A stretch of DNA of 64,000 bases from a virus. Positions 1 to 60,743 of the stretch are shown here, in pieces. The stretch spans positions 32,001 to 96,000 of IMG/VR virus record IMGVR_UViG_3300031949_000005; one strand, given 5' to 3'. The translations under genes were made by a program, and so were the position numbers. Each line of letters opens with the position of its first letter. Position 1 is the first letter of the stretch. The notes below the pieces were generated by a model, which was not told where the DNA came from, searched no databases, and worked only from the letters and a program-made list of their open reading frames with translations.

Positions 1-1095
1 TAATATATTTGTAGCTTTTTCAGCACCTGGGCTATAAAACGAACCCCTGGAAGCTATTTTAAATTCGTTATTATGCCTATATAAAATTCCAAGCCACCCA
101 TCTTCTTTTGTGAATATTTTAAATCCATTATTCCACGGTAATATATTTGCTTGTGTTTCTGGCTTTTCATTAATATTGAAGAACTTAGATAATGGTCTAG
201 CTACACATTCTAGTGTGTCTATATCAAAAATATGTCCACGACTATTTAGTGTTATATCATCCCATTTGTTTTCAAATACACATCTGTCGGTATATGTGTA
301 TATTTTAAAGCGATCCATTTTATCACAGCGCAATAAACCTTGCACCATTAAATCTTCTCTTGCTTCGATATCGTTTTGATTATTTTTATCTATTTTTATA
401 CCCTCTGTTTCTATGATTTTTATTTGGTTATTTTCTATAACTGCTGCCCTTAATACTCCACCGAAAACTGCGCCCCCGTCTAAGCAAAATACGTTTGGAT
501 TTGGGTTTACTGATTTTTCAACTATATGGCCACAAACGACATTGAAAGATCCATCCAAATAATCGTACCAAATACCGCCAAAAGATTCGTCAAAATAATT
601 CTTGGGGTTAATGCCACGGATATATATACAAGATTCTTTGGTTTGATTTTCTGGTAAAATTCCTGGAGCAAATCCAGCATGGACAACATATAATGGTTTA
701 TTGTCAATATATGGTAATTTAATTATACACGGAAGATTATCAAGATATTTTATAATATCATTTTTATCCATATCCTTGATTTGATTTATAGTTTTCTTTA
801 ACCCTGGAGAGATGGATACTTTATTTCCTTTTAAGTATCTTAAAAGTTTCCAACAATGATTACCCATAACAGAATATGTATTTGGGGTATTCATAAAATA
901 TTTTAGAACTTTATCGCTTAGAGGACCCCTGTCAGTGAGGTCTCCAACTGCTATAACAATATCATTATCTATATCATAATTACATTTTTCTAACAGATTT
1001 AGGAATTGTATATGACATCCGTGTATATCCCCAACTATTATTATTCTTTTGTCTTTCAAGGAAGATATATCTAATATTTTTGCATATTCTTTCAT
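1..1095 (-). CDS. Metallophosphoesterase fused to T4 Rnl1-like RNA ligase (runs off left edge; not in ORF track)
   Basis: Manual translation from ATG at 1095 gives GDIHG, GDLTDRG, GNH and LDGGAVFGG (calcineurin-like phosphoesterase), then YTYT, SRGHIFD, RPLSKFFNINE, KEDGWL and ASRGSF (Rnl1 adenylyltransferase motifs). Confidence 0.85.
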   Translation of the reverse strand, partial: MKEYAKILDISSLKDKRIIIVGDIHGCHIQFLNLLEKCNYDIDNDIVIAVGDLTDRGPLSDKVLKYFMNTPNTYSVMGNHCWKLLRYLKGNKVSISPGLKKTINQIKDMDKNDIIKYLDNLPCIIKLPYIDNKPLYVVHAGFAPGILPENQTKESCIYIRGINPKNYFDESFGGIWYDYLDGSFNVVCGHIVEKSVNPNPNVFCLDGGAVFGGVLRAAVIENNQIKIIETEGIKIDKNNQNDIEAREDLMVQGLLRCDKMDRFKIYTYTDRCVFENKWDDITLNSRGHIFDIDTLECVARPLSKFFNINEKPETQANILPWNNGFKIFTKEDGWLGILYRHNNEFKIASRGSFYSPGAEKATNIL

Positions 1096-1625
1096 TGTTT
1101 ATTTTTCCATGTTCGATTTAATCTAATATCTCTTATTGTTTGTCTGTTTACGGAAAATATTTTTCCTATTTGAATATTTGTTAAGCCATCTTTAATCATA
1201 TCTTTTATTAAAATTACTTTTTCTGAATTAAGTTTGGCACTTGGATGATTATCTCTCGTAAAAAGATATCTAGTTTTAATTAACATATTGGTTCCGTGTT
1301 TAACTGTATCCTTGGCATTTTCTGATTTGGAGCCCCATTTTAAATTATTTAAATTATTATTATAAGAGTTACCATCTATATGTAAGGATTCCATATCTAT
1401 TGGACAGATACCAATAAATGTTAATAGGATTATTCTATGAACTCTATATGGTTTTGAAATTCCATTTTTACTAAGATCTACTCTTTTATAACCTTTTCCA
1501 TTGTCGGTTTGTTTTAATAATCTTTCTTTTCTACAAAATTTACCGACTAATCTTTTTATATTACCAAAGTTAGAAGCTATATAAATTCCTTCATATCCAG
1601 GGATATCTTTCCATATTTCTTTCAT
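1092..1625 (-). CDS. NUMOD4-HNH homing endonuclease
   Basis: EIWKDIPGYEG..ASNFG (NUMOD4); VHRII, HIDGN..NN.LNNLKWG (HNH_3). Confidence 0.9.
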   Translation of the reverse strand: MKEIWKDIPGYEGIYIASNFGNIKRLVGKFCRKERLLKQTDNGKGYKRVDLSKNGISKPYRVHRIILLTFIGICPIDMESLHIDGNSYNNNLNNLKWGSKSENAKDTVKHGTNMLIKTRYLFTRDNHPSAKLNSEKVILIKDMIKDGLTNIQIGKIFSVNRQTIRDIRLNRTWKNKQ

Positions 1626-2124
1626 TTTATCTTTTCTATTTTAATTTTTCCATCTCTTAATGCCTCATATAGATCATATAAAACCATTTTACTACGATCG
1701 TTACTTCGGCAGATAAAACAACCTCTACGATTTCTTTTACAATGAGAATGTTCTAATTTTTCTGTTAGAGCTATGCGAGCATCATAAAAAGCTGATAATA
1801 TATATTCTTTTTTTGGTAATTTTATCATATTATTCTTTTTCTTTTAGGATTAAATTAAAATCTTTTATGTTTCCTATACATTTTCTGTTTCTTCGCCGAG
1901 ATATTTTATTTAACTCATCTTCCGATATATTATTTAGGTTATTTATGAACTTAAACGGTTCTGATAATCTGTTGGCACTATCTTGTAATTCGATTAAGGT
2001 TCCCCAACCAAAACCTGTTTGAGCCAGCATATATATAGTTTCATAATCTTCAAAAGTAAATAAATCTCCACACCTATAACTTGTTAAAGTAATCTTTTTT
2101 TCATAATTTGGCATAAATTTTCCT

Positions 2125-9365: not shown

Positions 9366-9884
9366 TCAAATATAATACCATGTTCTTTTGGCATGAATAT
9401 CGCATATATTAGATACACTTACGTTGAAAATTTTCGCAATATTTGGCTTTGATATTTCACTATTTTTTAAAAGATATTTTATTATTCTGACTTGTTTTTC
9501 GTTAAGTTTTGCGCGGTTATTATTAGAACCCTTCCTGTTGGAAATAGTGCCATGTCTTATCATATCTTTTATATTTTCTTTATGTGTACCCCACTTTAAA
9601 TTTTTCAAATTATTATTTTGTCTGTTACCATCTAAATGTCTACATTCCATTTTATCTGGGCAGGGACCGACAAATGCTTCTAAAACCAGTCTATGTATCA
9701 TAAAACTTTTACCAATATTATTTCTATGTAGTTTTACGGCTATATATCCATCTGATCTTATGGATTTAGTGTTTCTATTAATTGATTTATTATAATTATC
9801 CTTAATCCTTTTAACATTACCTAAATTAGATACTTGGTAAAATTCTTTGTAGTTGATAATATCTTTCCATATCTCGTTATTCAT
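9366..9884 (-). CDS. NUMOD4-HNH homing endonuclease
   Basis: EIWKDI, YQVSNLG, IHRLVLEAFVG, RHLDGNRQNN. Confidence 0.9.
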   Translation of the reverse strand: MNNEIWKDIINYKEFYQVSNLGNVKRIKDNYNKSINRNTKSIRSDGYIAVKLHRNNIGKSFMIHRLVLEAFVGPCPDKMECRHLDGNRQNNNLKNLKWGTHKENIKDMIRHGTISNRKGSNNNRAKLNEKQVRIIKYLLKNSEISKPNIAKIFNVSVSNICDIHAKRTWYYI

Positions 9885-10544
9885 ATATTTTTTTCTTCTT
9901 ATTAAATTTGCAATTATTCTTATAAGCTTCCCATATTTTGGTTCTTAACTCTTTATTTGCTAATCCAGACACCTTCATTATGCTCAAAACATCAACTAGA
10001 GCCAATTTTCTACCAGTTATCTTACAAAAATTATCAGATGGATTTACTACAGCAATTCCTTCGAATACATCTTCTGGATCTCCAAATTGGTCATTTCTAT
10101 TAAATATTTCTATTTGAGCGATAGAACAAAGTCTACTATCGTCTTGTCTTGACAAATAACCGTATGGAATAATAAAACCATATTGGCCATTTAATTCATC
10201 AATAGGAATATTCTTATGATCGAATTTGATAACAAAATTATGGTCCCCATGTTCTACTTTAATCGCCATTTAATTTCTCCAATTCTTTTTTATAATAATC
10301 GAGTGTTTTTCTATGAAATTTAATTTTATCTTTTACTAATCTTTTATATCGTTTTAAAGCATTGTTATATTTTCTATAGACTAATCCTCTTATCGAATAA
10401 GCATAATAAGTATTAATGTCCTTATAAAAATTACAGCTTTTTTGGGATATTCCAGACCATTCAGACAAATAACGACATTTAGTTTTTACTATTCCGGATT
10501 CACCGACTAAAAAATATACATTTCTTTCCTTCATTTTTATTCCA

Positions 10545-42837: not shown

Positions 42838-42863
42838 GGTTGTCTCCTTACGTTTGGGGTTAT

Positions 42864-42935
42864 ATCCCATACTAGGATTTGAACCTAGATTCACCGTGTT
42901 GTCACAGTGCGTCTTACCAATTAGACTATATGGGA
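42864..42935 (-). ncRNA. tRNA-like element with aberrant anticodon arm
   Basis: TCCCATA/TATGGGA acceptor, GTCT-AATTGGTA-AGAC D arm, CTAGG-TTCAAAT-CCTAG T arm; anticodon arm CACTGTG-ACAA-CACGGTG. Confidence 0.75.
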
Positions 42936-42939
42936 TACC

Positions 42940-43835
42940 AGCGTGAACACGCCAGAAGTGGCCACAATATCGCCGACTAATCCGCTTGTCGATTAGTAAC
43001 GAGATTGGTTCGCGGGCCTTTATAGACTAGAAGCGACGATAGATACGACTACCGCGCTACTATTTATTTGTCTCGTGGTGTCATTTCGGAGTACCATCCT
43101 ATAAGGTAAGCGCTAACTCACTCCCATAGGACGTATCGGTAAACTAAGAATTGCTAGACGGTACGGCGCTATCACCAGACCCGATAAGGTTGCGAGGCTT
43201 ACCAGACCCTTAGTTCCGACGCGCTATGGCCTAGGTTTACGGAGTTACACCGACAACCTATCCCCACCACAATTGCACTTATACTGTAACATATCCGACT
43301 AGACTTGCGTTAGATATGTTCGCGCGACAATTCTTATCAGGATTCTCACCGTATAGTCGCGCCATGTCTGATAAAACCATTTCGGTATGATACGATTGCA
43401 GGATAGTTTATTCCGACAAGCGCTATTCGCCACCGAAGCGCCCTTCGGTATTCTTGCTAAGCGCGCGGACTACCTACATCGTCCCATAACTTGTGTGTTA
43501 TCGGACGTATAAGCGTATACCGTTATATCGGCTAACGCGGGAATTATCGGACGCCTAATTCTCGGACCCTCTTCCCGAACTCCGATAATAATTTCGGGAG
43601 TTAGACCCTGCAAACGAACTAGGTCTTATAACGATGTTTCCCTATCGTTGACGGATTAGCGCGGACTATGCGCTCTCCCATTCTTATACAGCCCGATAAT
43701 AGGCCGTAATTCCGCATAAGACGCAACGCGAACAGCGCGTCTATTTAGTCCGAAGTTATCGGACGCATCGAATATGCGGCGAGGCGCGCACTACCGGACG
43801 AGGAGAATCCGATAATGCGCGATTGCGCCGGATAC
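42940..43835 (-). ncRNA. Candidate large structured non-coding RNA
   Basis: ~880 nt with no ORF of 60 aa or more, GC-rich, many consecutive inverted repeats with G-U pairs on the minus strand. Confidence 0.5.
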
Positions 43836-43842
43836 TCTGGTG

Positions 43843-44163
43843 TTACTTCTTGCCGAGCTTTGCGAAGCTCGACTTCAATTTTGACGCACCTTGCCGACGG
43901 TTGAGGATAGCGTCAGCGACACCCGCTCCGTTATCGGAGCCGAAGCCTCGATCCGACGGCGGGGTATATCCCGAACCGTTTTCGGACCATTGCTTCAAAC
44001 TCTCAATCACGTCAAGCGCTTCGGCGATTGCATCCTCTCGCTCATCCTCGGCCTTCAGCGCGATTGCATCGACGAGCTTCTTCGTGTCGGAATACCGACC
44101 AGCATCGTCAAGAAATCGTTGCGCATCGAAGGCGACCTTCGGCTCCATCGTACCAGTTGCCAT
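43843..44163 (-). CDS. Hypothetical early protein (106 aa)
   Basis: SD AAGGAG, own sigma70-type promoter, GC-rich codons. Confidence 0.75.
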   Translation of the reverse strand: MATGTMEPKVAFDAQRFLDDAGRYSDTKKLVDAIALKAEDEREDAIAEALDVIESLKQWSENGSGYTPPSDRGFGSDNGAGVADAILNRRQGASKLKSSFAKLGKK

Positions 44164-44256
44164 AGTAGACTCCTTTAGGAAGCTTCCTATGCGCTACCAG
44201 ACGATAGCACACGCTACCATCCGATAGCGCGTCAAACAAGTTTTTTGCTACATCAT

Positions 44257-44285
44257 ACTATAGCCTCCGGATTGTCAATAGTCAA
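44257..44285 (-). promoter_or_regulatory. Sigma70-type promoter
   Basis: TTGACT-17 bp-TATAGT, with an overlapping TTGACA..TATGAT and an A-rich upstream region. Confidence 0.65.
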
Positions 44286-44745
44286 GAGACTTGAACAAAT
44301 TATTTTTAGGTCTTATAATAAGGCACGACATAGAGTGTATATACAATAATAGTCGTATCCTATAATATATCACACTACTCAACAATAATAAGGATTTTAT
44401 TGACCGCGACCGATAAAAGCGCCCCTCGCGTTATTCCGCTAGTCCTATAATATATCACTTTTCTTGTCATGCTACACCATATTATTAGTATCGTCCTATA
44501 AAACGCTAATCCGATAATATCAAATAATGTCCCCGCGATAAACAGGCTCTTGTGTTATTATAGGATCGGTTCGATAATTGCTCGTAAAATCGCACGCAAA
44601 CATAATGATAATAAGCTAGGTCCGATAATCGCAGTTTTAGTAGTGATTGTAACAATATAGAGAGTTTTTGTCCGATAAAACAATCGGATTTTACCACATT
44701 CCGATAATAAAAAGAAGTGTTAGCGCTAAGGTTTTAAGCCAAAAT

Positions 44746-45990
44746 CTAATCTCGGATACCATGTCCGATAATCCTTCCATTGTATCCCTGTGCTCTTATT
44801 CGTCCGATAAGGCCAAAGAGCGCGTTATCCTTCCCGTCCGCAATATAGGACATACCTTCCAGCGCGTTATCATCGTCAAGGTACACCCGCGCTGTATAGG
44901 TGCCTTCGCCGATATGATCGGTTGCAACATAGAGCATTATAAGACCCTCCTATCCGTCGATGGTTATCGGATTCTTCCGTCCGTCAAGAGCGCGTCTATC
45001 CGCTTCGTCCGGTCCCTTGCGCAATTGCCCATACCATCCGGTCCGTGCTAGATTGTCCGATAATCTCTTCGGCGCTTCGTCCGGATTGAACGTCATTGCG
45101 CACGTACCATAATACTTCGAATGGAACGGTCCGGAAACAAACGCCAGCGTCAGATAACCGATTTGCTCGGTCTGGTAATTGAGAGTTTTCCGGCGCTTGA
45201 TTCTGGCAAGTATGGCTTCGCCGAAGGCAATTCGATACTTTGCACGTCTGATAATTGCTCCCACGATTCTTCTCCTTTATCGGACCAACTGAAGTTTGTT
45301 CCAATAATCCATTATTTCCGCTGCGCGGCTCCATCCTACAGGAAGCATAAGGTTATCGGTCGCGTGGGGTTCCCTGGTTTCGATAACCCTTCCGCCCCAT
45401 AAACTCGTGATATATCGGACCGCCGGTTCAACGTACGTTATCGGTACAATCATGTACTGGTTGCGCCTAGGCCCACGTCCTAGGCCGTCCCTATACGTAA
45501 TGAGAACCCGTTGTATGTACCCCATTGTACGCTCCTCGCTACCGATTGTCAAGCGGGAAAAACCGAACCTGTACCCCATCCGGTCCTATATCGTACGGAC
45601 CAATACAATGTCCAATAACTCCTTGAACGTCCGTATCCTCGACCCATTGTCCGTCCGATAAAAGAACCCGGTCACGTTCCGATAAGAAACCGTTGGCTAG
45701 ACCGATAATTGTTTCGGTGTGGTTATCGACACTAACGATGTCTCCAATACAGACTATCATTACCGGACTCCTTGCAGTGTGCTAACCCGTAGATTACCGG
45801 ACACACTGTCATATCCGATAACCTTGCTCGTACCGTCCGATAACGTAACCAGCACAGGCCCATCATCGTCCGATAGCGTATAAGCCGCCGTACGTCCGCT
45901 TGCCAGTGCCACCTCGTCCGATAACCCCTCGTAGAAGCTCGGTCCGATATTCTCCGAACCGGGGATATACAGTCTAGTTGTACCGAACAT
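44746..45990 (-). CDS. Run of five small GC-rich hypothetical genes (44746-44937, 44950-45264, 45277-45579, 45539-45760, 45760-45990)
   Basis: Tightly packed, strong GGAG/GGAGG SDs before most. Confidence 0.65.
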
Positions 45991-46002
45991 TGAAGCCCTC
46001 CT

Positions 46003-46074
46003 TTACGTTAACTCCCACCATACCTTGGCCAGTCCCATAACCACCATCGCCACGGCTAGACCGATAAGTGTCAT
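46003..46074 (-). CDS. 23-aa transmembrane peptide MTLIGLAVAMVVMGLAKVWWELT
   Basis: Manual translation; starts immediately after the upstream stop. Confidence 0.5.
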   Translation of the reverse strand: MTLIGLAVAMVVMGLAKVWWELT

Positions 46075-46075
46075 A

Positions 46076-46216
46076 TTATCGGCCTTCACAATCGTTGTTA
46101 TCGGAACACAAGAAGTAACCGCCCGATGGTCCGAGAACACCAACACCCTCTTCCGTCAGATAAAACTTGCACCCGCCGCACGCCAGCAACAAAAGTCCCA
46201 TAAGTAAACGTTTCAT
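46076..46216 (-). CDS. 46-aa putative lipoprotein MKRLLMGLLLLACGGC...
   Basis: SD AAGGAGG; basic N-terminus, hydrophobic stretch, lipobox-like Cys. Confidence 0.6.
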   Translation of the reverse strand: MKRLLMGLLLLACGGCKFYLTEEGVGVLGPSGGYFLCSDNNDCEGR

Positions 46217-46231
46217 CGTACCCTCCTTTTG

Positions 46232-46357
46232 TTATCGTCCGTACCGATTCGTTGCCAATCCGAAGGCATTGAAAACCAGTCCGATAGTTGCTAGTGCCAT
46301 AACCATCGCCCCGATGTAAAGCCCGTTGTTCGTTAGTAGGTTAATGATCGTTTCCAT
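46232..46357 (-). CDS. 41-aa membrane peptide METIINLLTNNGLYIGAMVMALATIGLVFNAFGLATNRYGR
   Basis: First ORF after the promoter; SD-like AAGGGACAGGA. Confidence 0.6.
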   Translation of the reverse strand: METIINLLTNNGLYIGAMVMALATIGLVFNAFGLATNRYGR

Positions 46358-46406
46358 TGTCCTGTCCCTTCGTTATAAGCCCTTGTTATCCCCTTACCAC
46401 GAGTAT

Positions 46407-46435
46407 ATTTTAGCATACCGATCGGCAAGAAGCAA
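46407..46435 (-). promoter_or_regulatory. Sigma70-type early promoter
   Basis: TTGCTT-17 bp-TAAAAT with extended -10 TG and upstream A-tract. Confidence 0.7.
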
Positions 46436-48126
46436 GCCCGAAGGAAAGAATCTTTTTTTAGTCCGATAAGTTAAGATAGGTAGGATAGTCTGATAAATAG
46501 AAGATAGATATATAGTCCTATAGCTTAGTCAAGCTAGGTTCCGATAAGTATAGTATGATGATAGATAGGTTATAGGAGCTTAGCATAGATAGTCTGATAA
46601 TTGGAGGTCCGATAAGGGGAGTGGGTATTTTATGTTATCGGAGCAAGGCGGAAGGAACGTCCGAAAACGCGGGGGCCTGCATTCGCACCAAGACCCCAAA
46701 ACCCATCCATACTATAAAATCGGATCACTTGTTTTTATCTAAAGCTCCATGGCCTCATATCACAAGAAAATTTTAAAGAACATCTTGGCTGTTGCTATAT
46801 TGGTATGAGGTTTAGCGGTCGGCGCTCTTTCCAGGGATATCACGACTAATACTCGTGGTATTCCAATTGTCTTGGGGAAAATATGTCAGCAATCATGCCT
46901 ATATTGGTTTCGTTAACAGTATCAATAACTGTCTTAATGACATATTATTATTATTTGAAAGTATTATATTCCAAAATTGATATAAGACATAAATTATCAG
47001 ATTCTTTTTTCAAATATTGGTCAATAGACAAATTTGCAAAAGATATTGTTAGATTAAAACGATTTAAAGATTTAAGAAATTATATAGAAGATAATTACAA
47101 GTGGGAAATTTGTCACTTTCAGAAAATGAATGACGATCTTGAACATATATTTTATATTAAAAAGAATACGGTATTATCGTGTCCTTTCCCTATCAAACCT
47201 GATAATTATAGCAATATGCAATTATCTTTATTTATAGCCCATATATTAATCGAAGAGAATTTAATTTTTACTGAATTCTATCAAAATTTCGTTGGTTATT
47301 TAAACAGGAGAAAACATTGAAGCAAATAGAAAAGAAAAAACGAGTCTTTAAAACCATTACGAAAGAAGATGATAGACTTTACGCCAAAAATGAACTGATT
47401 TGCCCAGAATTATTGGACGAACTCCACGATACGGTCGAGGAACTTAACTTTCTCTGTCGTGCTAATACTCCTGTAAAAGATAAAGGATACAGAATAGATA
47501 AAAAACAAAAGAACCAATTGTGTAAAACAATATCCTCAACTTTAAAGGAGATTTTTGAACTATGAGTAATTATTTAATAGAAGGTATTATCGGAACATTA
47601 ATGGGAGAATACGGAATTGTTAAAGTTCTAGAAATAGTTGATGAAAAATCATATCATCATATAATACACAAGGGTATTAAAAATACAATATTAGAATTTA
47701 ATACGTATAACAAAAATTTACCAAAACTAGATCATACATCCTGTTCATGCCCTGGTTGTACTGGTCGTGGATAAAATCATGATAACTTATACGAGAGAAA
47801 AATTTTGTCGTGTATGTTCTCCTATTTTAGAAGATTTTGGTCAAGGTATAAAAATATCTTGTCAGGCTACTTTAAATAAAAAATATTGTGATTTTAATAT
47901 AAGTGATTGTTATGTATTTTATAAAGATATAGTAGAATATTACAAAAAACTAAAATCCTTTTACACGAGAATAGGAGACATGGATTATGTCAATAAATTA
48001 CCAGATGTAGAAAAAATTATAAAACGTGTCTGTTGTTTTTATCAGCCGACAAATGCTACTAATAAAGAAATATATGATGATGTTGTAGTGAATATAGAAT
48101 TATATAGTTAATAAAAGGAGAAATAT

Positions 48127-59619: not shown

Positions 59620-60197
59620 TGATTCTCACTATTCTTTTTGATTTTTCTTCTGATTTTGGTAATTTGTCACCATCTGGTTTATTTATTCTTTCTTCATAAC
59701 ATTTTATTGGATCATTAGAAGAATATTTTTTAATAGTACAATTTAAAGATTCAGCTATCTCTTTAATTTTTCTTTGTCCGCAACTACTAATAAATTTTTT
59801 AATAATTGTCTCTATAATCTTTTCTGCTATTTTTATTGTCTTGTATTGTCCTATAACTTCATTCGTTTCTGTATCAAATATTGAATAAGGATGTATGTAT
59901 GGTAACGTATTTTTAATAATTGTCAATCTTTTTCCAGGGTTTATCATCAAGGGTATAATAGTATTATAAGAGATTATTTTTTTATTTTTTATTTTTTTGT
60001 AATAAATGTCCTATAACTATACTTTATATAATATAGGGATGTTTTATTGTGTATATAGTTTTTGTGATTTATGAAAAAAAGAATTAATCTTAAAATAAAA
60101 CAAGACAATAAAGCAAAAGCTTTGATGAAAAATGATCTTGAGAAAGAAGATCCAAAAGAAGCAGAATCTATTATACAGTCTAATATAGAGGAGATAT

Positions 60198-60743
60198 ATG
60201 ATAAAAAATTCATTGATGGAATTAGCAATACCAATAATAACAAAAATAGCAAAACTACATAGAAAATCAAATATTTTTGCATATTATACAGAAGATGACA
60301 TAGAACAAGAAATATGGATTTTATGTTTAGATGCATTAAAAAGATATATTAAAAATCGAGGCAATTTAGAACATTATTTAAATACTCATGTTTCTAATAG
60401 ATTAAAAAATCTTAAAAGAGATAAATATTATAGGCCAGATGATGATATTTCTGTAAACAGTAAATCAAGACAGCGAATGAATTTGATTAATGCTTTACCA
60501 ATAAATATAATAAAAGATTCGACTAGGAATCGGTTATTAGCTTCTTCAAGTTCTTCTTGTGTAAATAATCCATCCGATATTTTGACATACTATGAGACAA
60601 AGAAATATCTTGAAGATAATATACCGATAGATTTACTATCATCTTTTAATGAACTAATATCTGGTAATAAAATACCAAGATCTATTTTAAATAAATTAAG
60701 GATAATTGTTGTGAAGATTCTAAAGGATAGAGAAAGTGGCTAA
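60198..60743 (+). CDS. Sigma-factor-like protein
   Basis: DDIEQE.WI..LDAL.RY...G.LEHYL..HV.NRL.NL.R (region 2-like). Confidence 0.65.
   Translation: MIKNSLMELAIPIITKIAKLHRKSNIFAYYTEDDIEQEIWILCLDALKRYIKNRGNLEHYLNTHVSNRLKNLKRDKYYRPDDDISVNSKSRQRMNLINALPINIIKDSTRNRLLASSSSSCVNNPSDILTYYETKKYLEDNIPIDLLSSFNELISGNKIPRSILNKLRIIVVKILKDRESG

Follow-up and report, generated by a model that had tools for sequence, protein, structure and literature searches.

A 3.5-kb island in the genome of an uncultured phage is densely covered by copies of a single nine-letter word, GTCCGATAA, which is under selection at the level of the DNA itself and recurs in arrays in dozens of other phages. The DNA analysed here, referred to as the window, is a stretch of 64,000 nucleotides (nt; positions 32,001 to 96,000) of the IMG/VR virus record IMGVR_UViG_3300031949_000005; the genome of the window, a virus record of 167,640 bp with 31.5% GC, is called G000, other G-numbers denote other records, and L-numbers denote fetched stretches. 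In the window the array spans 43134..46644, at a density of about 12-15 sites per kb. The island is very probably a selected protein-binding array, and a high-density binding array or sink, as a first-pass annotation of the same DNA had supposed, would be the kind of explanation that best fits the sequence. It is probably a sequence-specific binding-site array of the Xer/dif family. The match of the word to the XerC-side arm of dif, as seen in sequence comparison, is new here, since the first-pass annotation named no candidate protein. Whatever the reader protein, the array is a cis-element that is well defined, conserved and not described so far; no description of such arrays was found in the literature searched, and a search with the word itself returned mostly primers.

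A dense array of one word under selection at the DNA level

The hexamer CCGATA/TATCGG is found exactly 41 times at window 43134-46636 (26 on the plus strand, 15 on the minus strand), the same number that had been counted by eye, and 25 times in the remaining 60.5 kb of the window. The whole of G000 (167,640 bp) holds 125 copies with one hot spot only, the island, in line with the earlier description of the motif as sporadic elsewhere. In 1000 dinucleotide-preserving shuffles of 43130-46645 (GC 47.6%) the mean was 4.2 and the maximum 12; the expectation of about 2 given in the annotation was thus slightly low for such a GC-rich stretch, which leaves the enrichment unaffected. Under dinucleotide-preserving shuffling, 0.3 copies of TCCGATAA are expected in the island and 25 are observed, and for GTCCGATAA the corresponding values are 0.06 and 14. 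Of the sites with at most one mismatch from GTCCGATAA, 54 fall in the island and 10 in the other 60.3 kb of the window, and the one-mismatch variants reported earlier are indeed present, as GTCTGATAA, GTCCTATAA and GTCCCATAA. Outside the island only 11 copies of TCCGATAA occur in 164 kb of genome, while other GC-containing hexamers reach at most 14 per 3.5-kb window anywhere in G000.

The logo of the aligned sites reads G-T-C-C-G-A-T-A-A, and the flanks are devoid of information up to 45 nt on either side; the sites are therefore a free-standing 9-mer, and neither copies of a longer repeat nor the product of tandem duplication. They lie in all frames and on both strands, in coding as well as non-coding DNA. 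GC climbs to 42-51% between 40.8 and 46.7 kb of the window, and the array stops at 46644, immediately before the switch in strand and GC at which its end had originally been placed.

An absence of function, with the enrichment arising from composition, ancient tandem duplication or repeated peptides, might be suggested by the GC-richness of the island (45-50% vs 30%) and by those sites that encode recurring LSD/IG peptides. This is refuted by the shuffles, by the random flanks, by the spread of the sites over all frames, both strands and non-coding DNA, by an LSD codon choice exclusive to the island and by the clustering of the same word in dozens of unrelated phages, and its probability is practically nil. 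Composition and duplication, which had been named as what would overturn the first reading, are not the cause.

The recurrent LSD, SDN and IG peptides remarked upon in the annotation are real, and they betray selection on the DNA. LSD is encoded by TTATCGGAC in 4/5 cases inside the island; in the long genes of G000 and its relatives G001, G002 and G004 that lie beyond their islands, the count is 0/34. In the 76-aa and 106-aa island proteins (aa, amino acids), whose orthologs are 35-43% identical, the motif-encoded peptides (LSD, V/L-IG, GSDN) occupy the same aligned positions. A closer relative, the ENA contig L367, aligns to window 44.4-46.8 kb at 73% identity, and over the aligned stretch it counts 36 cores vs 30 in the window. 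Conservation in place was observed for 14/28 aligned sites, the expectation for any six columns being 27%; many sites are private to one of the two genomes, and one is reversed in place via three substitutions. What selection preserves is how many sites there are and, for the most part, which way they point, rather than where exactly they lie, a pattern which fits many redundant binding sites and is a poor fit for promoters or operators. The word is a DNA-level signal under selection, even inside genes, and the DNA-level code over coding and non-coding DNA that had been proposed holds up at synonymous sites and in related phages. This selection is strong enough to set codon choice, and even recurrent peptides, in early genes.

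Arrays in clade relatives and in unrelated phages

G000 assembles as a circle with an end overlap of ~130 nt; its gene content includes tRNAs, three sigma-like genes and many HNH homing endonucleases. Cultured relatives are lacking: its capsid protein finds no match among 50,697 phage records. Whole-record comparison identified G001 (119.6 kb), G002 (76.8 kb) and G004 (46.7 kb) as syntenic relatives with 40-70% protein identity, and G003 (160 kb) is joined to the clade by homologs in the end region and the island. Each of the four clade relatives has one hot spot, with exact 9-mer copies of 36/40, 20/22, 14/17 and 16/17 and 0-1 for a reversed-word control. Site direction in these relatives is nearly uniform (36:4, 20:2, 14:3 and 16:1, vs 26:15 in the window): the sense strand of the small island genes reads TTATCGGAC, and in all four the word points towards the adjacent co-directional gene block, the direction of transcription being taken from the open reading frames (ORFs).

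A wider census in IMG/VR was made by pattern scans and covered 257 fetched contig stretches, and its array totals are lower bounds. Irregular arrays of the same word, with 5-23 sites each, were found in at least 33 of these stretches, while control words gave a few loci only, of 5-6 sites each. The phages concerned belong to several groups, range from 30 to 65% GC and include complete genomes of 50-98 kb; that the word stays the same across this GC range speaks for a reader that is itself strongly conserved. The typical layout comprises two dense arrays 2.5-6 kb apart, in non-coding DNA, with blocks of same-direction sites that switch direction. Neighbouring sites share their direction in 222 cases vs 69 with opposite direction, the tightest spacings are 14-17 nt, and up to 17 sites are packed into 420 bp. 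The spacing periodicity suggested as a check was detected near 10 nt, as a weak signal only (R 0.23, uncorrected p about 3e-4). The element, a single 9-letter word in dozens of natural arrays, is widespread in uncultured phages. The unrelated phage G005 has at least seven copies of another short word, GACCCACC / CCCACC, at L337:8040-8160, adjoining its GTCCGATAA array. A search of genome contigs with a pattern of three spaced octamers returned 119 matches from many phyla, nearly all of them regular and mostly coding tandem repeats, and was uninformative on hosts.

The first-pass annotation had placed the array at the probable first-entering end of the genome. A physical genome end or terminal-repeat boundary, serving DNA entry, end protection (Chi-like and polar) or packaging, would suit the one-way orientation, which fits a polar signal read by a translocase, and the small early-type genes of the island. 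It would also suit the contigs that end within or next to the array, namely the clade relatives G003 (near-complete, 96%), G030 (97%) and G019, together with G029. These contig ends could be physical ends, terminal-repeat boundaries or assembly breaks in a fast-evolving stretch, where strain heterogeneity would produce breaks equally well. In the circular-looking G000 and in G001, G002 and G004, however, the array lies inside the contig and the sequence runs on unbroken to its left and right, and the compact arrays of complete 50-98 kb genomes are internal too and in both orientations. Chi-type words differ between hosts while the array word is invariant, and the terminase gene and its neighbours lie 50 kb away. 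A location at a genome end is on these grounds very unlikely.

The orientation towards gene blocks also raises the question of promoters. TCCGATAA is a bona fide sigma-28/SigD -10 octamer, and it appears in a paper on SigD of C. difficile (PMC3865298). The word matches the sigma-28 -10 box GCCGATAA at 7-8/8 positions and has the -10 octamer (G/T)CCGATAA in common with sigma-28 promoters, and the array might be a battery of -10-type elements for a sigma-28-like factor (a phage sigma-like protein or host FliA) directed towards the rightward block and antisense to the early genes. The phage has three sigma-70-family ORFs, one with weak FliA/SigB-F-G likeness, the word points to the adjacent co-directional block in all four relatives with a mapped array, and six plus-strand sites stand directly upstream of the rightward block in the window (46460-46620). 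Such promoters would nevertheless lack a -35 element, TAAA being present 14-16 nt upstream in 2.1% of 526 sites vs 1.5% at control offsets, and no flank position is informative. The scarcity of TCCGATAA beyond the island shows that the word is not placed before other gene blocks, spacings as tight as those described above are unsuited to promoters, site positions turn over freely, and complete 50-98 kb array-bearing genomes have no sigma gene. We consider a promoter battery highly improbable.

An iteron field of a replication origin, or a centromere-like partition site, bound by a phage initiator or segregation protein, has been weighed as well. The array lies where leftward and rightward transcription diverge, at a local minimum of the cumulative GC skew, and contains an AT-richer spacer (44221-44745); the paired arrays of other phages flank a few genes, and the same-direction blocks that switch direction and the weak ~10-nt periodicity may be read in the same sense. 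P1 and F rep genes have iteron sets around them. Phage GC skew, on the other hand, mostly follows the direction of transcription, and no initiator, ParA/ParB or other shared family was found among the island ORFs or 134 array neighbours. Moreover, an initiator and its iterons co-evolve and vary from replicon to replicon, unlike the array word, which is the same in unrelated phages, and 40-50 irregularly spaced sites over 3.5 kb inside genes go far beyond known origins. An origin or partition site is accordingly very unlikely.

Likeness to the XerC arm of dif and candidate readers

GTCCGATAA and its variants equal 11-nt arms with an inner ATAA in PMC2731167 and in Table S1 of PMC3025954, on sequence comparison. 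The XerC-side dif arm is ACGTCCGATAA in Anaeromyxobacter and AGGTCCGATAA in Myxococcus (PMC2731167), and among 641 predicted dif sites (PMC3025954 Table S1) TCCGATAA is counted 36 times, TCCTATAA 36, TCCCATAA 21 and GCCGATAA 38, the arms counted being spread over Acidobacteria, Actinobacteria, Bacteroidetes and Firmicutes. The variants GTCTGATAA, GTCCCATAA, GTCCTATAA, GACCGATAA and TTCCGATAA of the window are all found among natural XerC arms. Arms that match the word occur in Deltaproteobacteria, Acidobacteria and Actinobacteria and, as variants, in Bacteroidetes and Firmicutes. Array and dif have in common a 9-11 nt word, an invariant inner ATAA and the tolerated variants. They differ in that a replicon has a single dif of 28 nt, in which two unlike arms enclose a 6-nt centre, whereas the array offers 41-54 sites in 3.5 kb, as solitary arms in unrelated neighbouring sequence and with no XerD arm in the island.

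All fetched viral DNA together contains 1,767 sites, and in nine different contigs a site is followed at exactly 6 nt by TTATGT, with which a XerD-type arm begins; this combination, word-N6-TTATGT, which makes a full dif-like 28-mer, is expected in 0.4 contigs, and other spacers give 0-3. The surroundings of seven dif-like 28-mers were inspected, and six of the seven have 3-18 further sites within 400 bp; in the compact-array phages the array sites may be accessory to a true dif-like core. A bacterial parallel is provided by the Acidobacteria metagenome-assembled genome G036 (L617-L623), in which pairs or triplets of (T)GCGCATTATCGGAC are present at seven loci. One of these lies in a dif-like 28-mer (L621:2041-2068) and the six others hold solitary pairs or triplets; three copies stand directly upstream of a XerD-like gene (L617:1231-2178).

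A Xer-family recombinase is, judging from these likenesses, the most likely, though tentative, candidate for the reader, with solitary sites putatively bound without recombination. The array word, as (C)GTCCGATAA(C/T), corresponds to the XerC-side arm of dif, and the reader in G000 would be host XerC/XerD, this phage being without a recombinase of its own; several relatives encode a Xer homolog in addition. Since the adjoining 6-8 nt vary from one site to the next, strand exchange is not expected and the sites would be bound, not recombined. We infer both the identity of the binder and the effect of binding: the early-gene island would be coated with recombinase monomers, and the coat might form a polar barrier to DNA-tracking machines or a zone where they are unloaded, in the way XerD acts on Smc-ScpAB at XDS, or the array could alternatively be a sink for Xer protein. 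XerD unloads Smc-ScpAB at the XDS of Bacillus subtilis, and artificially arrayed XDS stop the complex (as cited in PMC11840125). XDS shares with the array the putative use of Xer-type sites for binding only; this is the only role known for solitary Xer sites, and XDS is the functional model that comes nearest.

Xer-family recombinases of ~300 aa are encoded by the relatives G001, G003, G016 and G030. They match XerD and XerC models end to end, at 223 and 216 bits (XerD 223 for the G001 copy), and the catalytic R, HxxR, H and Y are kept. The relatives that encode them are otherwise lytic-looking phages of 110-160 kb. The gene of G001 (L347:16067-16948, minus strand) lies between two genes that are adjacent in G000, and no dif-like inverted repeat was found near it.

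A number of observations weigh against a Xer reader. The island contains no word-N6-TTATG (XerD-arm) site, and XerD-arm-like words of the TTATGTT/TTATGTA type are not enriched in it. On its own, XerC binds its arm poorly and as a rule depends on XerD being bound to the adjacent arm. G000 encodes no tyrosine recombinase, and only 5/34 array-bearing records do. Arrays of TCCCATAA, another natural XerC arm, were seen at 4/79 loci with at most 6 sites, no better than a reversed-word control, so that arrays do not simply track the XerC arm of every host. The 9-mer also resembles a resolvase half-site and the sigma-28 -10 box, which makes likeness alone a weak argument. Paired solitary sites of the kind seen in G036 were present in only 2/81 sampled Acidobacteriota genomes and are lineage-specific. 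Finally, XDS sites are XerD-type and low in number, and are scattered across hundreds of kb of the chromosome terminus, whereas the array repeats a XerC-type word 10-15 times per kb, over genes and in a virus.

The resemblance to resolvase sites gives rise to a further alternative, in which each site is bound by one monomer of a small phage helix-turn-helix (HTH) protein, of the resolvase HTH_7 or homeodomain-like type, and the coat shuts off or polar-blocks early transcription in a stoperator-like manner. The word is a nearly ideal gamma-delta resolvase half-site: the half-sites of F-plasmid Tn1000 res (TGTCCGATAT, GTGCGATAAT, CGTCCGAAAT) match it at 7-8/9 positions and are bound by a monomeric HTH domain. 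A gamma-delta/Tn3 res, however, consists of three dimer sites of fixed geometry beside the resolvase gene, while the arrays have no preferred inverted spacing. Stoperators of cluster A mycobacteriophages, which are read by a monomeric repressor of the L5 gp71 type, are short, asymmetric and monomer-bound, have a fixed direction relative to transcription and act in transcribed DNA (PMC9283540). The array sites are comparable in being asymmetric and mostly arranged in the same-direction runs counted above; their bias with respect to island transcription, as judged from the ORFs, is strong in the relatives but only 26:15 in the window (PMC9283540 for the stoperator pattern). They differ from stoperators, of which ~30 sites of 13-14 nt are scattered genome-wide, mostly intergenic, in one phage cluster and co-evolving with the repressor, in being packed into one island. 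G000 has many HTH_7-like modules, and in G001 a 73-aa ORF with an HTH_7 match (29.8 bits) lies 3 kb from the array. Yet the HTH_7 matches in G000 come from the C-termini of HNH homing endonucleases, with recognition helices that vary from copy to copy, and from two multi-HTH proteins far from the island; G000 has no resolvase (PF00239 absent), and an HTH_7 match exists in only 5/28 other array-bearing records, none of them beside the array. A hidden Markov model of the HTH_7-like modules of the genome found no match among the array neighbours. A phage-specific repressor would also be expected to drift in specificity between unrelated phages, whereas the word is invariant, and an HTH protein of this type is an unlikely reader.

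Searches beside the arrays were made for any encoded reader. No protein is shared across phage groups, BLAST clusters spanning at most 5 loci, and among the 134 neighbouring ORFs no Pfam family is found in more than two. The search revealed no candidate for a cognate repressor gene close to the arrays. DUF7178 occurs between the arrays of a single phage group, and sigma-factor genes are confined to the large-phage clade. A small beta-rich family with a ~60-aa core and without Pfam match is located 11-874 nt from arrays in five contigs (L026:3297-3575, L063:6743-6958, L160:8903-9211, L165:8238-8480 and L188:7940-8206), and was not found in the clade of the window. An AAA+ ATPase that adjoins the array of G005 and has a homolog in the window was rejected, both being classic AAA/BCS1-like proteins and not DNA binders.

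On a broader scale, by analogy with XDS, many tailed phages might carry solitary XerC-arm arrays that capture host or phage Xer without recombination, either as a polar barrier evicting or stalling SMC-family loop extruders (host condensin, Wadjet-like defence) or by draining Xer; we regard this generalisation as quite unlikely. If it were true, phages would encode in their DNA a kind of counter-measure or host-takeover device that forms a class of its own. Should the sites be the Xer sites that they resemble, a universal bacterial recombinase would have a second, recombination-free job exploited by phages on a large scale, a job so far described only for a few XerD sites in the terminus of one bacterium. 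In practice, the array is a marker of the fast-evolving early or host-takeover island in phages without cultured relatives.

Layout of the island and other genes of the genome

From left to right the array crosses GC-rich DNA without ORFs, eight small leftward ORFs and two non-coding spacers. The features are as follows.

42938..43842, no strand: GC-rich stretch without a long ORF, left part of the array, ~900 nt, 50% GC; 9 sites in mixed orientation at 43134-43809
43481..43506, no strand: inverted pair GTCCCATAA - 8 nt - TTATCGGAC, of lox/cer-like geometry; G004 has the same architecture and the same right arm, TTATGGGACG
43843..44163, minus strand: 106-aa island gene; in G000, G001 and G004 alike, TCCGATAA encodes GSDN at one and the same position of the alignment
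44221..44745, no strand: AT-richer non-coding spacer; 6 sites, all plus; sigma-70-like promoter look-alikes GTCCTATAAT and GTCTTATAAT
44746..44937, minus strand: 63-aa island ORF with sites
44950..45264, minus strand: 104-aa island gene, conserved in G001-G004 and L367 (75% identity)
45277..45579, minus strand: 100-aa island ORF with sites
45539..45760, minus strand: 73-aa island ORF with sites (LLSD, IIG, VIG)
45760..45990, minus strand: 76-aa island gene with three LSD and two IG, all motif-encoded; the G001 and G002 orthologs likewise use the motif at these positions
46059..46084, no strand: second inverted pair, GACCGATAA - 8 nt - TTATCGGCC; same geometry at the homologous place in L367 and at the right edge of the G004 array
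46076..46357, minus strand: two very short ORFs, a lipoprotein-like one of 46 aa and a membrane-like one of 41 aa, which are first in the leftward island unit
46460..46644, no strand: intergenic run of six sites or variants on plus (TAGTCCGATAAG, AGTCTGATAAA, GTCCTATAG, GTTCCGATAAG, AGTCTGATAAT, GGTCCGATAAG), then one on minus

The last of these runs is immediately left of the rightward gene block, which starts near 46883. Inverted pairs with an 8-nt spacer show a merely mild excess over background when all arrays are pooled. Protein homologs in relatives exist for 3/8 of the small leftward ORFs, and the contig of G003 ends ~1.5 kb beyond its homolog of the 106-aa gene. PHROG and Pfam searches with ten island and neighbouring ORFs gave nothing usable, the island DNA had no match among the 50,697 phage records, and a related-locus search with a 213-aa neighbour protein returned nothing. 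The 104-aa protein has no informative homologs beyond the one 75%-identical copy; its fold model (pLDDT 73) has the order alpha-beta-beta-beta-alpha, which is that of the double-stranded-RNA-binding domain and suggests a weak likeness in topology, and the model has no PDB match at E <= 0.001.

The ORF-free stretch 42938-43842 is situated between the 106-aa gene and a tRNA-like gene (42863-42936, minus strand) to which ARAGORN assigns a four-base anticodon (acaa) and Rfam a tRNA score of 47.9 bits. No Rfam family was found for the stretch, even at E <= 1, and Rfam searches of the window and of the island returned tRNAs only.

Elsewhere in the genome, G000 has at least 8 paralogous HNH homing endonucleases of ~165-235 aa, e.g. 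at window 1095-1640, 9369-9944 and 23141-23701 (minus strand), in which the HNH core has an EIWK...SNLGN module on its N-terminal side and an HTH_7-like helix-turn-helix on its C-terminal side, and with homologs in G001, G002 and the unrelated G005. Two proteins with repeated HTH modules (IS630, HTH_23 and HTH_7-like), one of them with an HNH motif, are encoded directly after the capsid gene, outside the window, at G000:104069-105370 and 105390-105770 (L211:325-1626 and 1646-2026), and are conserved in G001, G002 and G004. The three sigma-70-family ORFs, of 181-204 aa, are found at window 60189-60740 (plus strand), L356:1123-1737 (minus strand) and L358:1462-2016 (minus strand); that of 204 aa is the one with weak FliA/SigB-F-G likeness, and it has a homolog in G003. 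A terminase-large-subunit-like ORF of 1127 aa at L353:70-3450 (G000:95070-98450) carries an HNH/endonuclease-like insertion in mid-gene, possibly an intein or a homing-endonuclease insertion.

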